Shown here in pieces: positions 34,118 through 38,915 of a stretch of DNA of 64,000 bases. The DNA is taken from assembly GCA_963718665.1 (NCBI GenBank), contig OY970359.1:1344001-1408000 (forward strand), read 5' to 3'. The stretch's first letter is position 1; the number at the start of each line of letters is the position of its first letter. The translations under genes and the position numbers were made by a program. This DNA is from an uncultured Phycisphaerales bacterium. Its GTDB lineage: Bacteria; Planctomycetota; Phycisphaerae; Sedimentisphaerales; Anaerobacaceae. The notes beneath the pieces were generated by a model. The model had not been told where the DNA came from and did not search any database. It saw only the letters and a program-made list of their open reading frames with translations.

Positions 34118-35270
34118 CGTTGAGGTCTGCCGGCCGGGCGGGTTTACCCTCCGCTATTTTAGTCATTTGGAAAGTCGTAACCGTATGCGTGATAATGGGT
34201 TCCGGACCGGACGTTGGCCTAAGCATCTGGCTCTTGGTAGCCAATTTCACTCTTTCGACCATATCCTGCGTCATCTTATTGTTGATTATCCGGCCTGTGG
34301 CATTCTCGATTTCAATCTGGCCGGCACCATCGCCCGATATTTCTCTGCTTGCCTTCGTGGAAGTCCCCCCCGCTGCTTCGCTTTGCGAAGCAAGGCGGCG
34401 GGGGTCCGACGTTTGCGTATTGGCAACCTGGGTAACCTCGGGCCGAACAATTAAATTGACGTCCACAACAGAAATTCCGCCTTGTCGCCCCGCGTCTTGC
34501 TGTCGCACGCCGGCAGCGGGGGTATTCAGCCGGAAGGTCTTCTCAAAAACTATATTTACCTCCTCTATCCGCTCCGACTTGGCGGTATAGCCCACATCCG
34601 CGGAAGACAAAACCTCTTTGCGGGTCCATATCGTCCCTTCGTTATTTGAATCGGAAAAAACCGCAAATTGGTCTTCAAACATACGTCTTACCCCCGGTTC
34701 GTCAAATTGCCGGTCAACGTTTCGGCTGACCATGTCCGCGCCGGGAATATCACCTATTTTGGCTTTTGCGGATGTAATGAGTGCCTGCAAACCGTTGATT
34801 TTATCTATATGCCCCTGAGGCGTTATTCGCAAATAAATCTCTTCGCCTGTCGCCAGACACAACGGCATCGCCGGGATTGGCGTCTTAAATTCATTTGCAT
34901 CGGAATCAAAATCTAATTTCTGGTCTTTCGACCGCAGTTTCATAATAACTCGTCTATATGTGTATCTGACCCAGGCGGAGCCGTTTTCATCAACATCTTG
35001 CACATCCATGTCGCATTCGAGGTGTGTGGTTTGCTCCGCAGACCATTCATTGCCGTCTATCACTCGCGATATTTTCTGCTCAGTAACCGACACCAGCGAA
35101 TACTTATCGCCGGGCGCAAATTTAAACCTCAGCGAATCAGCCATCGCATTAGAGCAAAGCAGCAAACTTACGCAGCAAATTAAGAATTGAGAATTAAGAA
35201 TTGAGAATGGCTCGCCTGGTGTTATGCCACGCCAATTGCTCTTCTTTATTCTAAATTCTAAATTCTTCAT
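34104..35270 (-). CDS. Secreted hypothetical protein (DUF6263-like)
   Basis: Signal-like segment followed by LRFKFAPGDKY, DVDENGS, FDSD, ITPQG.I..I.G, IE..TG.I pattern. Confidence 0.65.
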   Translation of the reverse strand: MKNLEFRIKKSNWRGITPGEPFSILNSQFLICCVSLLLCSNAMADSLRFKFAPGDKYSLVSVTEQKISRVIDGNEWSAEQTTHLECDMDVQDVDENGSAWVRYTYRRVIMKLRSKDQKLDFDSDANEFKTPIPAMPLCLATGEEIYLRITPQGHIDKINGLQALITSAKAKIGDIPGADMVSRNVDRQFDEPGVRRMFEDQFAVFSDSNNEGTIWTRKEVLSSADVGYTAKSERIEEVNIVFEKTFRLNTPAAGVRQQDAGRQGGISVVDVNLIVRPEVTQVANTQTSDPRRLASQSEAAGGTSTKASREISGDGAGQIEIENATGRIINNKMTQDMVERVKLATKSQMLRPTSGPEPIITHTVTTFQMTKIAEGKPARPADLNEKGA

Positions 35271-35272
35271 TC
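35177..35272. repeat. 7-nt unit inverted repeat at the 5' end of the DUF6263-like gene
   Basis: aaattaa-gaattga-gaattaa-gaattga-gaat ... ttattct-aaattct-aaattct-tcattct. Confidence 0.75.
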
Positions 35273-35281
35273 TGAGGCCTC

Positions 35282-36424
35282 CTATCTTTTAGCGCCAAGC
35301 TGCCCGCAGGCGGCGTTTATTGTCTGGCCCATTTTCAGCCGGACGGTCGTCTCTATGCCGGCATCTTCCAGAACCCCGGCAAACCGCTCTATCGCCTCCC
35401 GGCCGCTCGGTTTCAAACCGCAGCCAAGATACGGATTATACTCTATCAGATTCACGTTGCACATCACCACGCGCCCTGTTAGAAACCTGCGATTTGTTGG
35501 AAAGTTCCGTGTTACGATTTTTTCTAACGGGGCGCGTAGCCGCCTAATCAGCATCTGTGCGTGAAGAACCGTGTCATTGACGCCCTTTATCAGGCAATAC
35601 TCGAAAGTTACGCGATTCCGCGTTTTGCGCTGATAAAGCTCGACTGCCGCGAAAAGCCGGCCCAGCGAATACTTTTTGGCAATCGGCATCAGCTTTTGCC
35701 GGATGGCGTCGGTAGGGGCATTCAGCGATATCGCCAATCGCGGCTGGATATCCTCGTCGGCTAAACGCTCAATGCCTTCCACAAGCCCGCACGTGCTTAT
35801 CGTCAAATGGCGAATGCCTATATGCCTGCCCGCCGAGTGATTCAGTATGCGAACCGCGTCGAGCGTCGCTTCGTAATTCGCCAACGGCTCGCCCATGCCC
35901 ATAAAGACGACGTTGCTGATACGAGCCCCGTTAGAAATCTGCGATTCGCTGGAAAGTTCCGTATCGGGATTTTTTCTTACGGGGCGAGTGTCCCCTCCGG
36001 CCACATTCACCTGGTCAACAATCTCGCCGGCGGTCAGGTTCCTCGCAAGGCCAAGTCGGCCGGTCGCGCAAAAGACGCATCCCATCCCGCAGCCGACCTG
36101 CGTTGAAACGCACAATGTTCGCCGGTCATCGTCAAACAAAAGCACTGATTCCACTCGACCGCCATCGGGCAATCCGAAGACATACTTCACCGTCCCGTCA
36201 GGGTCCGTCAATTTTTCGATGACCCGCAATGACGAAATATAGTAGCCCTCTTCGACAAGTTTGACGCGAAGGGGCTTGCTCAAGGTGGTGATTGCGGAAA
36301 TATCGGTTACGCTGTGCGCCTGAATCGCGCTGAAAATATACCCCGCCAGGTATTTGGCCTGGTCAAGCCCGACAACAAGGCGTTCAAGCCCCGCAACCGT
36401 CTTCGATTTAAGGTCTTTTCCCAC
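35282..36424 (-). CDS. rlmN: Radical SAM 23S rRNA m2A2503 / tRNA m2A37 methyltransferase carrying two peptide insertions
   Basis: DGTVKY, CVSTQVGCGMGCVFCATG, VVFMGMGEP, ISLNA, FEY.LI.GVND, NAACGQL. Confidence 0.9.
   Translation of the reverse strand: MGKDLKSKTVAGLERLVVGLDQAKYLAGYIFSAIQAHSVTDISAITTLSKPLRVKLVEEGYYISSLRVIEKLTDPDGTVKYVFGLPDGGRVESVLLFDDDRRTLCVSTQVGCGMGCVFCATGRLGLARNLTAGEIVDQVNVAGGDTRPVRKNPDTELSSESQISNGARISNVVFMGMGEPLANYEATLDAVRILNHSAGRHIGIRHLTISTCGLVEGIERLADEDIQPRLAISLNAPTDAIRQKLMPIAKKYSLGRLFAAVELYQRKTRNRVTFEYCLIKGVNDTVLHAQMLIRRLRAPLEKIVTRNFPTNRRFLTGRVVMCNVNLIEYNPYLGCGLKPSGREAIERFAGVLEDAGIETTVRLKMGQTINAACGQLGAKR
35469..35537. mobile_element. 69-bp palindromic element inserted in-frame in rlmN (copy A)
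   Basis: 17-bp terminal IR acgcgccctgttagaaa / tttctaacggggcgcgt (1 mismatch); 58/69 identical to copy B. Confidence 0.85.
35921..35989. mobile_element. 69-bp palindromic element inserted in-frame in rlmN (copy B)
   Basis: gccccgttagaaa ... tttcttacggggc termini; ungapped alignment with copy A. Confidence 0.85.
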
Positions 36425-36494
36425 AGGGGTATTCTACCATATTTGGGAAATGGCACGAGCTTCAAGCCCGTGAAAATACGGCCAAGATGTGTTA

Positions 36495-38915
36495 CTATTC
36501 TTCCTCTTTATCGACGGCGGCGTAGCCCTGCTGGCCCTCGCTAACATAGGCCGAATCGCTGCTCTTCTGCCCGCCCGCTTCCGAGACCCTCTGTTTTTCC
36601 AGCTCGTCTCGCAACTGCTCCCAGTCCTCGACGCCCATCATCACCTCGCGTGCCTGGCTACCCTTGTATTCGCCAAGTATGCCCAGCGCCGCCATTTGCT
36701 CAATCATACGCGACGCACGGGCATAGCCAACGCCTAAGCGACGCTGCAACAGCGATACGCTGCCTCGCTTGCTGTCCAGAACAGTCCGCACGGCATCGTC
36801 AAACAGCTCGTCTTCTATCATTTCGGTTGTGTCCGCCTGGCCAAGCTGCGTAAGCTCGGGATGGAACTGCGGCTCGGCGACTTCCTTGAGGTGCTTGACT
36901 ATCCGCCGAACCTCGTCGTCGCTGACAAATGTACCCTGGGCGCGAATCAGGTCGCTTGTCCCCGGCTTCAAAAACAGCATATCGCCCTGACCCAGCAGCG
37001 TTTCCGCGCCGTTCTGGTCGAGGATAATACGGCTGTCCATTCGGGCGGCAACTCTGAAACCGATACGCGTAGGCATATTCGCCTTAATCAGGCCCGTAAC
37101 AACCGTCGCCTGCGGTCTCTGCGTCGCGAGCACAATGTGAATCCCGACCGCCCGGCTTTTCTGCGCCAGCCGAACTATATGCGCCTCGATTTCCTTGGCC
37201 GCGGTCATCATCAGGTCCGCAAGCTCATCGATAACTATCACAACATAAGGCAGCTTCTTGGGAATCTTGGCCTCTTCCTCGGGGCTTGTCGGCTCAAATC
37301 GCCTTATGACTTCCTCGGTCCCAAGGGCATTGTATTCGCTGATATTCTTGACGCGGGCCTCAGCAAGAAGGGCATATCGCTCGTCCATCTTGATTGTCGC
37401 CCATTCCAGAATCTGAACCGCACGCCTGGTCTCCGTAACAATCGGCGTCATCAAATGCGGTATGGTATTGAACGCCGTCATCTCGACCATTTTCGGGTCG
37501 ATAAGAATCATCTTAACATCGTCGGGCCTGCGAGTCAGCAAAATACCAGCGATAATAGTATTGATACACACGCTTTTGCCCGACCCGGTAGTGCCCGCGA
37601 TAAGCAGATGAGGCATACTCGTCAGATCCGAAACCAGCGCCTCGCCCGACGAATCCTTGCCCAAAAACAACGGTATCGCCATACTTTCGGGCTTGTTTCC
37701 CGCCAGCCGGAGCAGGTCTTTTATGCGCACTTTCTCTTTTTCACTGTTGGGAACCTCGACGCCGATTGTGTGCTTGCCCGGCAGGGGAGCGACTATGCGA
37801 ACCGCGCCTACGCCCAGCGCACGGGCAATATCATTTGAAAGCGAACTAATCTGGCTGACCTTTACGCCCGCCGCAAGCTGCAATTCGAACATCGTAACGA
37901 CGGGCCCGGTCTCAGCCGCCACAACCCTCGCCGAGACATCGAATTCATTAAGCAGGCCCTCCAGCGCGACCGCCTTGGCCTTGACGACCTTTTCCTGAAT
38001 CGACGTGAAGTTATGCTCCGGCTCATCGAGCAGGTCCATACCAGGCATCGTGTAATCGGCATAACTTGGCGGCTCGTATGGCTCCGTGGTTTTTTTAGTA
38101 GTAACCGGCTGCAATCGCATCTGGGCGCCCGCGGGAGCCGGCGCGCTTTCGATTACCGGCGTGCCGTGAAGGGCGGATTCAACGTCGGTGTCCCTGTCAG
38201 GCAGCTCGTGTGCATTCTTATCTGCCGCTGCCGATAACGATGGGCGCAACAGCATCTCCTGCTTTTTATCTTCCGTCTTCTGCTTCAAGCTCAGCCGACG
38301 CCATATCTGACCGAGAACCCTCGATTGCTCCGACCCCGTCAGCCACTTCGGCGCGGCAAAACCCAGCATCTTGCGAACCACAAACCCAAGCGCACCAAAA
38401 AATACCGCCACAACCTGGTCGGCCAGCAGCATCATCCCGACAACCCACAGGGTGCCAAGAAGTATAGCCGTGCCAAGTGTGGCAAAATGACTCCGCAAAA
38501 ACTCCGCCGCGGCAACCCCCAGCACTCCGCCCGAACCGGTCGGGAAACCGTAAATGCCGTGCTGCGTAAAGCAATAAAACGTCGTCGAGGCCGCAGTCGT
38601 TACAAGCACAAGGCCCACGCCTCGCAAAACCGGCTGGTCGATTTCGACCTCGGCAACCTCGGCAATGGCAAAGTAAAGGGCGGCTGCCAGCACAATAAAT
38701 ATGCCGGGGCCGATGTAATACAGCAAATAATACGCGAATAGCGCCCCCGCAGGGCCGCACCAGTTGGCCGCCGGCTTGTTATTCGGATATACAAATTTGC
38801 TGGGCCAGTCGCCTATATTAAAACTCAGACAACTGCAAAAAAGTACCAAAAGACCCGCAACTAAAAGGCATTGCAGGGCCTTTACCTTCATCCTCTTGTC
38901 TTTCACCCGGCTCAT
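36495..38915 (-). CDS. ftsK: DNA translocase FtsK
   Basis: N-terminal 4TM domain (NWCG..GA), PHLLIAGTTGSGKSV, IDPKMVE, IDELADLMM, LATQRP, gamma domain LLQRRLGVGYARASR. Confidence 0.95.
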   Translation of the reverse strand: MSRVKDKRMKVKALQCLLVAGLLVLFCSCLSFNIGDWPSKFVYPNNKPAANWCGPAGALFAYYLLYYIGPGIFIVLAAALYFAIAEVAEVEIDQPVLRGVGLVLVTTAASTTFYCFTQHGIYGFPTGSGGVLGVAAAEFLRSHFATLGTAILLGTLWVVGMMLLADQVVAVFFGALGFVVRKMLGFAAPKWLTGSEQSRVLGQIWRRLSLKQKTEDKKQEMLLRPSLSAAADKNAHELPDRDTDVESALHGTPVIESAPAPAGAQMRLQPVTTKKTTEPYEPPSYADYTMPGMDLLDEPEHNFTSIQEKVVKAKAVALEGLLNEFDVSARVVAAETGPVVTMFELQLAAGVKVSQISSLSNDIARALGVGAVRIVAPLPGKHTIGVEVPNSEKEKVRIKDLLRLAGNKPESMAIPLFLGKDSSGEALVSDLTSMPHLLIAGTTGSGKSVCINTIIAGILLTRRPDDVKMILIDPKMVEMTAFNTIPHLMTPIVTETRRAVQILEWATIKMDERYALLAEARVKNISEYNALGTEEVIRRFEPTSPEEEAKIPKKLPYVVIVIDELADLMMTAAKEIEAHIVRLAQKSRAVGIHIVLATQRPQATVVTGLIKANMPTRIGFRVAARMDSRIILDQNGAETLLGQGDMLFLKPGTSDLIRAQGTFVSDDEVRRIVKHLKEVAEPQFHPELTQLGQADTTEMIEDELFDDAVRTVLDSKRGSVSLLQRRLGVGYARASRMIEQMAALGILGEYKGSQAREVMMGVEDWEQLRDELEKQRVSEAGGQKSSDSAYVSEGQQGYAAVDKEEE

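Follow-up and report, generated by a model that had tools for sequence, protein, structure and literature searches.

A 59-nt frame-neutral miniature element inserted twice in rlmN of an uncultured Phycisphaerales bacterium and its probable relation to GIY-YIG nuclease elements

The rlmN gene of an uncultured Phycisphaerales bacterium contains two copies of a short palindromic repeat. The gene is located within a 64,000-nt stretch of DNA (the window; G000:C1:1344001-1408000) of G000, a single-contig genome of 2.61 Mb and 49% G+C. Comparisons with relatives indicated that the repeats are in-frame copies of a 59-nt transposable element of the miniature inverted-repeat type (MITE), which is probably a gene-less derivative of an element of ∼270 to 300 nt whose GIY-YIG nuclease would mobilise it in trans. 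The parts of this interpretation differ in strength. It is firmly supported that the 59-mer is non-autonomous, is frame neutral, duplicates 4 nt of its target, is present twice in rlmN as well as in further genes, and differs in presence from relative to relative. We have very little doubt that the rlmN inserts are mobile elements read in frame, while we lean, with some reserve, towards the GIY-YIG nuclease as their mobiliser.

A repeat search of the window detected two 69-nt repeats (35469-35537 and 35921-35989) with 84% identity (58/69) and a start-to-start distance of 452 nt. Both repeats are contained within a single open reading frame (ORF) of 380 amino acids (aa):

35282..36424, minus strand: rlmN, 23S rRNA/tRNA adenine-C2 methyltransferase, radical SAM, 380 aa, intact (ORF, Pfam Radical_SAM and structure matches)

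The product of this ORF had a Pfam radical SAM match, matched the solved RlmN 6fz6 in a phmmer search (E = 1.9e-71) and was assigned the RlmN fold by Foldseek, with TM scores of 0.78 to 0.86 to 6fz6, 3rfa and 5hr7. Residues C112, C116 and C119 and the motifs MGMGEP (175-180) and AACGQL (371-376) were invariant or nearly so in an alignment of 117 homologs. As 452 leaves a remainder of 2 when divided by three, the copies are read in different frames, copy A as PVRKNPDTELSSESQISNG and copy B as PLEKIVTRNFPTNRRFLTG. An earlier note on this DNA, made from the sequence, had described two such copies in different frames of an intact rlmN, and the same coordinates, ORF and motifs were recovered here. 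Contigs assembled from public runs were used to examine whether the duplicated sequence was real. A contig of run X1 spans 35199-36600 with 0 differences, a contig of X2 spans 35100-35640 (insert B) and one of X3 spans 35792-35993 (insert A), the latter two also without differences to the window. All four runs (X1-X4) are from one study, and X1 may be the source sample. No insert-less variants were seen in these runs, for which cover is contig based and patchy. As contigs of three runs match the window without differences, the rlmN repeats are not an assembly artefact.

In order to define the insertion boundaries, rlmN was gathered from 23 further genomes, of which 17 are congeners and 6 belong to different families within the order, and the protein and DNA sequences were aligned. 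At each site the DNA alignment exhibited a net gain of 63 nt relative to the empty site, consisting of a 59-nt element and a 4-nt target duplication. Two copies are, therefore, present as the earlier note had reported, but the unit is not 69 bp long; the remainder of the 69-mer is flanking sequence. The element has the form CCCCGTTAGAAA...TTTCTAACGGGG, with 12-nt terminal inverted repeats, and its DNA folds with z scores of −2.8 to −5.3. The features are as follows.

35474..35532, no strand assigned: element copy B, 59 nt, CCCTGTTAGAAA...TTTCTAACGGGG on the plus strand; the gene reads the reverse complement, PLEKIVTRNFPTNRRFLTG, as RlmN residues ∼298-318
35470..35473, no strand assigned: copy B target-site duplication, one side, CGCG (filled/empty alignment; flanks in genome G032)
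35533..35536, no strand assigned: copy B target-site duplication, other side, CGCG (filled/empty alignment)
35926..35984, no strand assigned: element copy A, 59 nt, CCCCGTTAGAAA...TTTCTTACGGGG on the plus strand; the gene reads the reverse complement, PVRKNPDTELSSESQISNG, as RlmN residues ∼147-167
35922..35925, no strand assigned: copy A target-site duplication, one side, CGAG on the plus strand (CTCG on the coding strand; filled/empty alignment)
35985..35988, no strand assigned: copy A target-site duplication, other side, CGAG (filled/empty alignment)
Site B empty, coding strand: ...TTG-CGCG-GGGTG
Site B filled, coding strand: ...CTA-CGCG-[59 nt]-CGCG-TGGTG
Site A empty, coding strand (genome G015): GGGGAC-G-CTCG-CAT
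Site A filled, coding strand: GGGGAC-A-CTCG-[59 nt]-CTCG-TAT

The flanks of insert B in G032, CTG-CGCG-[element]-CGCG-GGG, were identical to the empty site, indicating that the two flank differences at site B of G000 are later substitutions. Element and duplication together amount to 63 nt, or 21 codons per insertion, and hence no insertion shifts the reading frame. Within the termini, stop triplets occur only as TAG (element positions 7-9) and TAA (52-54). As these share one frame, two of the three phases in either orientation read through the termini, with the peptides PVR(K/N)...ISNG or PLE...FLTG resulting. Four of the six frames are open across copy B and three of six across copy A.

The inserts were patchily distributed even among close relatives. 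In the 24 aligned RlmN orthologs, insert B was confined to G000, and G006 was the sole other genome with insert A. The G006 protein has 94% identity to that of G000 and an identical insert A but no insert B, and site B is also empty in G007, G008 and G015. Outside these 24 orthologs, rlmN of G032 contains insert B and not insert A. A wider survey aligned 117 of the 120 closest RlmN homologs listed, several of them labelled Sedimentisphaerales by their sources. An A-type insert was present in 4 and a B-type insert in 7 of the 117, with both together in this genome only. All four combinations of A and B were observed, and hence recombination, repeated insertion at the same site or precise loss is needed. 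Site A (after residue 147) contained some insert of ≥8 aa in 59/117 homologs, with unrelated sequences in different species. Inserts of 21, 42 or 63 aa recurred at several further RlmN positions, and the length of the protein varied from 333 to 453 aa within the lineage at >60% identity. Most orthologs lack the two inserts, so that these segments are not ordinary conserved sequence. The empty sites, the 4-nt duplications and the further genomic copies described below bear out the proposal that this is a non-autonomous mobile element.

Several other inserts were observed in rlmN genes of congeners. Site A and other loops contain unrelated palindromic inserts in G007 (L008), G009 (L012), G032 (L228) and G017 (L009), one such insert being VVRDAS...AIRNTHDAG. 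In G017, SEQRTA(D/N)SGQ... is present twice, a double insertion as in G000 but of a different element, and the rlmN frame of this genome (L009, G017:C1:473359-477468) is open for 774 aa, running into a downstream lipoprotein-like gene with no intervening stop. A further variant of the element, CCCCGTGAAAT..., was suggested by a PREIDL...NISRG insert in RlmN of G014 and G004. In the window itself, positions 35170-35280, between the rlmN stop and the next gene start, contain a tandem 14-nt repeat, AATTAAGAATTGAG (two units, 35178-35205), followed by TTCTAAATTCTAAATTCTTCATTCTGAGG; peptides encoded by simple repeats of this kind, KSEIRN and NRKSEIENQK, occur as inserts in RlmN of G007 and G012.

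An AlphaFold2 model of RlmN was generated from the 117-sequence alignment and had a mean predicted local distance difference test score (pLDDT) of 79.4. The two long low-confidence segments of this model (pLDDT of <50 at residues 146-166 and 300-318) coincided with the two inserts, and alignment to solved RlmN structures had a gap at insert A and a split at insert B. The inserts are, hence, predicted to form exposed disordered loops distant from the conserved motifs, in agreement with the suggestion of insertion at tolerant loops.

A profile search (nhmmer) detected 9 strong and 2 weak copies of the element in G000, some of them in frame in other genes. The terminal pattern, with ≤2 mismatches, was found at 11 places in G000, and a reversed control pattern gave 0 matches in all 24 genomes of the genus; the copies in G000 are not chance matches. 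Five copies lie well inside ORFs with Pfam domains, namely the two in rlmN and one each in a DUF2344 gene, a HAD hydrolase and the AIRS_C domain of an AIR-synthase-related protein, the last being a diverged copy of 62 nt with a gain of 66 nt. The domain spans of the HAD hydrolase and AIRS_C proteins exceed the Pfam profile lengths, and the open frames run across the copies. The DUF2344 insert is exactly 21 aa and was present in 4 of the 23 congeners with this gene (G000, G032, G015 and G016), which do not cluster by flanking sequence. Two copies lie at or near gene starts: that of an ABC ATPase gene adjoins ATGAA, and that of dnaB precedes the N-terminal domain, with counterparts in G008, G014 and G006 located outside long frames. 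Intergenic copies were detected at four places in G000; at one of these, two copies are fused head to tail, and at another the copy is nested inside an additional pair of termini. Copies were present in 14 of the 24 genomes of the genus, 1 to 6 each, with 11 in G000. Genomes G036-G038 contain 25 to 50 element termini each. A variant family with termini CCCGTTGGAAA and TTTCCAACGGG and a 63-nt core was also observed, conserved in three congeners, perhaps at a single site (G000:C1:54058-54120, G014:C8:96938-97000 and G017:C1:1925843-1925905).

The termini define a family that extends across phyla. A scan of one genome per species with the pattern CCCGTTAGAAA-N(30-42)-TTTCTAACGGG, for which fewer than 1 chance match was estimated, detected at least 122 loci. 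The taxon labels among the matches listed included Phycisphaerae/Sedimentisphaerales, metagenome-assembled genomes labelled 'Pirellulales', many Patescibacteria lineages, Omnitrophota, Desulfobacteria, Nitrospirae, Nitrospinota, Clostridia and Gammaproteobacteria. In these matches the termini were constant and the interiors widely different. Of the 121 distinct copies listed, 74 had an exact direct repeat of the 4 nt outside the outer C/G, and in 5 the repeat of these 4 nt was exact but inverted. The tetramer that is duplicated had the form YNNR, the first base being Y in 111/121 and the last being R in 117/121. The core length was a multiple of three in 76/121 copies, with length classes of 57, 60 and 63 nt. 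When the listed copies were grouped into 70 clusters by interior sequence, the modal core length was a multiple of three in 52, compared with an expectation of 4/13 (binomial p ∼1e-13). A core of this type, the two outer bases and the duplication together add whole codons, and the three-fold periodicity of length points to selection for frame neutrality. At least 19 of the 122 listed copies lie deep inside long open frames, a floor because flanks were short.

Some of the family copies are located in prepilin leaders, between G-F-T and a duplicated F-T-L-I-E-L-L. In-frame copies of this type, KGFT-PLEI...FLTG-FTLIELLVV, were observed at L172 (G036:C97:1-3000; 330-480 and 1290-1400) and L173 (G038:C6; 560-700 and 1640-1780). 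As the G-F-T codons are duplicated, such an insert would leave with the cleaved leader. The G-F-T codons were considered as the main target and rejected, since pilin-like N termini followed only ∼6 to 7 of the 34 copies that are flanked by sequence of the GTTTAC or GTTCAC type; they are one target among many. A 62- to 63-nt subfamily with the same termini occurs across phyla (L053, L067, L079, L126, L035 and L070; positions 601-663) and contains two internal 7-bp hairpins that vary in sequence but still pair, so that the shape is that of a three-way junction; the interiors of most other copies are unstructured. Readings of the element as attC-like or ribozyme-like were dropped, as the attC core motifs are wrongly ordered and structured interiors occur in only ∼8 to 10 of the 122 listed copies. 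No Rfam match to the element was detected in 14 loci at E ≤ 1.

The earlier note had stated that the mobiliser is not in the window, which is correct. GIY-YIG-only elements are the candidate; the only related one in G000, with diverged ends, lies 307 kb upstream of the window, at G000 1036797-1037100, and is a 304-nt element, A-TGAA-TCCAGTTAGACC...GGTCTAACTGGA-TGAA. Its sole ORF (MNPVR...GGLTG*) extends from arm to arm, encodes a GIY-YIG domain and derives its stop from the duplication; a solitary CCCGTTAGAAA in G000 falls within this element. The same architecture was found in G036, G037 and G039, with ends CCCCGTTAGAAC, CCCCGTTAGACC and TCCCGTTAGACC. In total, 25 small GIY-YIG genes in six genomes were examined, and 4, including that of G000, were framed by such termini. 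The four framed proteins have 45 to 60% identity to the G000 protein and ∼33% identity to neighbours with hairpin flanks like the NTS of Neisseria. NCBIfam gave only weak, sub-threshold matches to the nuclease of this clade. Two of the other small GIY-YIG genes, from Sedimentisphaerales-like genomes (L257, G037:C84, and L260, G036:C16; ∼1445-1850), have hairpin flanks GTCATTCCCGCG...CGCAGGAATGAC that are very like the Neisseria NTS, and still others have different inverted ends, CCCTCACACC and TCCCGCCCCTC.

A profile of the four framed proteins was used to obtain 80 metagenome loci, retrieved through peptide words outside the parts encoded by the termini. Both termini were present at 57 of these loci (≤1 mismatch in 9 nt, at 266 to 325 nt), one terminus at 11, several of which are cut by contig ends, and none at 12. 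The terminus of the rlmN element, CCCCGTTAGAAA(T/C), recurs at L344, L349 and L303, and these three loci together with L265 share ends of 10 to 13 nt with that element. Among 57 gene-bearing elements with usable flanks, an exact direct 4-nt repeat was observed in 24 (TGAA in 16) and an inverted repeat in 2; 20 of the elements are placed on an ATGAA start. The length was divisible by three in only 13/57, unlike the miniatures.

Nuclease elements of the G000 type were orthologous in G000 (L369), G033 (L370) and G006 (L371), with a compensatory change in both arms, from GTTAGACC/GGTCTAAC to GTTAAACC/GGTTTAAC. The flanks are contiguous in G032, G007 and G002. G032 (L402, G032:C3:6300-6500), which is without the nuclease element, still has, before the ATG of the host gene, sequence that matches the right end of that element exactly, AAAGGAGGTCTAACTGG; this looks like a deletion that left the ribosome-binding site of the element.

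The 59-mer has all the generic features of a MITE. It is small, lacks a gene and is present in several copies; it has terminal inverted repeats; CGCG and CTCG are duplicated relative to the empty sites; and there is a longer gene-bearing element with the same ends, the protein of which is not a known transposase. As the genes of one GIY-YIG clade are framed by the same termini, the 59-mer is most likely a gene-less derivative of such elements. The nuclease would recognise and cut a hairpin formed by the element ends, by analogy with Ssn nucleases, host repair would finish the integration, and the enzyme would act in trans on the gene-less 59-mer. The inserted peptides would be translated and tolerated.

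A number of observations weigh against this interpretation. No nuclease element with exact GTTAGAAAT ends was found in the 24 genomes of the genus. When 401 genomes of the order were scanned for the exact 10-nt terminal pattern at cassette spacing, 5 matched, of which 1 was a real cassette, and no gene-bearing element with exact GTTAGAAAT ends was detected. Of the 12 terminal positions, 4 differ between the nuclease element of G000 itself and the 59-mer. Exact flank repeats are scarcer in gene-bearing elements (24/57) than in the miniatures (74/121 of the matches listed). The termini of gene-bearing elements are also coding (PVR... and ...LTG), and part of their conservation may be at the protein level. 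A hydrolytic nuclease of ∼95 aa alone cannot explain strand joining or the 4-nt duplication, and the nuclease ORF may be mere cargo, the element that holds it being moved by a transposase. To our knowledge, no GIY-YIG enzyme catalyses transposition. The copies in G000 are only 84 to 88% alike, most being common to several species, with no sign of current activity. An orientation bias of coding copies was also considered and was not significant; the four well-supported internal copies of this subfamily have the same orientation, and other open-frame copies have the opposite one.

The main alternative is that the 59-mer is an ordinary MITE whose movement depends on a classical DDE transposase, for example of the IS1380/piggyBac type, with the GIY-YIG ORF as a passenger in the longer versions. 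A duplication fixed at 4 nt next to terminal inverted repeats is the hallmark of cut-and-paste transposition by DDE enzymes, and elements of the IS1380/piggyBac type have ends starting CC(C) and a 4-bp duplication. The flank repeats are also cleaner in the miniatures than in gene-bearing copies, and a literature search gave no paper on a GIY-YIG transposase. We nevertheless consider this explanation unlikely. There was no match to PF13701 (IS1380 type) in G000, and the sole complete copy in G036 lacks matching ends; a partner of this type was, therefore, rejected. No DDE transposase gene was found between the same ends in the six genomes searched. Distant pairs of termini in G036 and G038 were rejected as full-length elements, as they enclose ordinary genes (aminotransferases, a sulfatase, RtcB and pilin-like proteins) and no transposases; the search for long elements covered gaps of up to ∼600 nt. 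Both termini were, in contrast, present at 57/80 loci of one GIY-YIG clade.

The only DDE_Tnp_1 insertion sequence (IS) of G000 was also rejected as a partner, as it has different ends (TGCTCTGTAGAAAAG) and an 8-bp duplication. This IS is present in seven identical copies (L206-L212; one at G000:C1:501100-502150) of 1044 bp, with a 331-aa frame, ends TGCTCTGTAGAAAAG and TGCTTTGTAGAAACC and 8-bp duplications, and looks recently active. The GTAGAAA within its ends resembles GTTAGAAA of the miniature, probably by chance. The earlier note had also raised an IS200/IS605- or RAYT-type transposase with the same termini. Only two weak Y1 matches were detected in G000, neither of them near any copy, and this partner was not retained.

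A second explanation sees the hairpins as Ssn-related repeats domesticated by the host, or as RNA or DNA structures with a regulatory role, which are maintained because they serve the cell, for example in controlling transformation, recombination or mRNA stability; the RlmN peptides would be selected rather than tolerated. Ssn/NTS pairs are described as modulating natural transformation in Neisseria in the excerpted text of PMC11893778. The compensatory change in both arms of the nuclease elements of G000, G006 and G033 and the frequency of site A inserts (59/117 homologs) could be read in the same manner. However, most RlmN orthologs lack the inserts, site A is occupied by unrelated elements in different species, the interiors of the family are variable and mostly unstructured, no Rfam match was obtained and the copy number in the genus is low (0 to 11 per genome). 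Domestication is, on this evidence, improbable. That nothing mobile is involved, the repeats having arisen by gene conversion or duplication between two variable rlmN loops or by misassembly, would fit with both copies being in one gene and with site A being a hypervariable loop, but is scarcely credible given the copies in unrelated genes and intergenic DNA, the exact 4-nt duplications against empty sites at both rlmN sites, the same termini in many phyla and the contigs of three runs that span the inserts without differences or gaps.

The preferred interpretation, a frame-neutral MITE related to GIY-YIG nuclease elements, was compared with known systems. Rickettsia palindromic elements (RPEs; Ogata et al. 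2000, 2002, as cited in PMC10969869 and PMC2229807) are listed as Rickettsia-specific repeats of 105 to 146 bp with 12-bp inverted repeats and an unknown target duplication (PMC2229807, Table 1). In the excerpted accounts, 19 fusions to ORFs are counted for R. conorii, and a guanylate kinase containing an insert is described as both translated and active (PMC2229807, PMC10969869). As in these accounts, the 59-mer is a palindromic non-coding repeat with terminal inverted repeats of ∼12 bp that is found both between genes and in frame in housekeeping genes, adding a peptide while leaving the enzyme intact; no transposase is identified with RPEs in the same excerpts. In-frame insertion was observed here twice in rlmN and in the DUF2344, HAD and AIRS genes, with the RlmN fold and motifs kept. 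The parallel drawn in the earlier note holds, therefore, for behaviour. It does not extend to membership of the family, the present element being set apart by its size (59 nt versus 105 to 146 bp) and host phylum. It further differs from RPEs, as far as these are covered by the excerpts, in its defined 4-nt duplication, its Sedimentisphaerales-like host, the distribution of its termini across phyla and its gene-bearing relatives.

Ssn nucleases are described as cutting single-stranded DNA beside their own hairpin repeats, and the arrangement 'NTS-ssnA-NTS' was called IS-like by the authors, in the excerpted text of Chenal et al. 2025 (PMC11893778). The present elements resemble the Ssn system of that text in that a small single-domain GIY-YIG gene is framed on both sides by a hairpin repeat that is also scattered in the genome. 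The nucleases here have Pfam GIY-YIG matches and, as in Ssn/SRM pairs, flanking repeats (both termini at 57 of the 80 loci and one at 11). They differ in several respects. The repeat is unlike the NTS motif CGTCATTCCCGCG...GCGGGAATC given in the excerpts of PMC11893778; judged by the NTS core, the termini and interiors are without ATTCCC...GGGAAT. Two arms of one stem frame the gene here as terminal inverted repeats located inside the reading frame, an arrangement distinct from that in the excerpted account. The 4-nt target duplications and in-frame coding insertions are likewise not met in those excerpts (PMC11893778). Finally, the proteins are only ∼33% identical to the neighbours with NTS-like flanks.

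MITEs in coding sequences, such as the 107-bp form of the Correia element, the enterobacterial repetitive intergenic consensus (ERIC) and QMITE1 of Coxiella, are described in excerpts of the literature as being ∼100 to 200 bp, mostly targeting TA and, in cases with a known partner, tied to DDE transposases (PMC2229807, PMC10969869, PMC5896051). The 59-mer shares with the elements in these excerpts its shortness, terminal inverted repeats, target duplication, non-autonomy and open frames fused to host ORFs. It is about half their size, has frame-keeping length classes (cores of 57, 60 and 63 nt) and has a nuclease rather than a transposase as its candidate partner. Searches of the literature, outside of which lay subscription journals and supplements, found no published account of MITEs in Planctomycetota, Sedimentisphaerales, Patescibacteria or Omnitrophota and, within the same limits, no bacterial inverted-repeat element with a GIY-YIG-only gene. 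New in this analysis are the exact insertion rule, a cross-phylum family with three-fold length periodicity and a quantified link between the miniatures and nuclease elements.

In G000 the copies within rlmN are old and by now probably immobile. Current mobility is unlikely because the copies are only 84 to 88% alike, are shared between species and coexist with a resident nuclease element whose ends have diverged. A broader proposal, which we put forward tentatively and rate a little short of evenly balanced, is that minimal transposons with a ∼95-residue GIY-YIG nuclease, read from terminal repeat to terminal repeat, as their sole protein are pan-bacterial and that their 59-nt gene-less offspring, tuned in length to multiples of three and hence able to persist within coding sequences, graft 21-residue loops onto essential enzymes in Planctomycetota, Patescibacteria, Omnitrophota and other phyla. 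If this were true, the 'Rickettsia' phenomenon would be general and would have an enzyme.

Selfish DNA within coding genes has so far been a curiosity of Rickettsia and a few host-restricted bacteria, with no enzyme tied to it. The present results widen the host range to a sediment bacterium, with exact boundaries and a family that crosses phyla. Owing to a frame-neutral design (63 nt, with both terminal stops in one frame), most insertions do not break the reading frame, and the insertion sites mark permissive loops of enzymes. Gene callers and homology tools will meet unexplained 21-residue loops in proteins of Sedimentisphaerales and the Candidate Phyla Radiation. Through the link to GIY-YIG-only elements, two questions can be put to the test: which agent mobilises palindromes in coding sequences, and whether Ssn-type nucleases that are flanked by hairpins are transposons.

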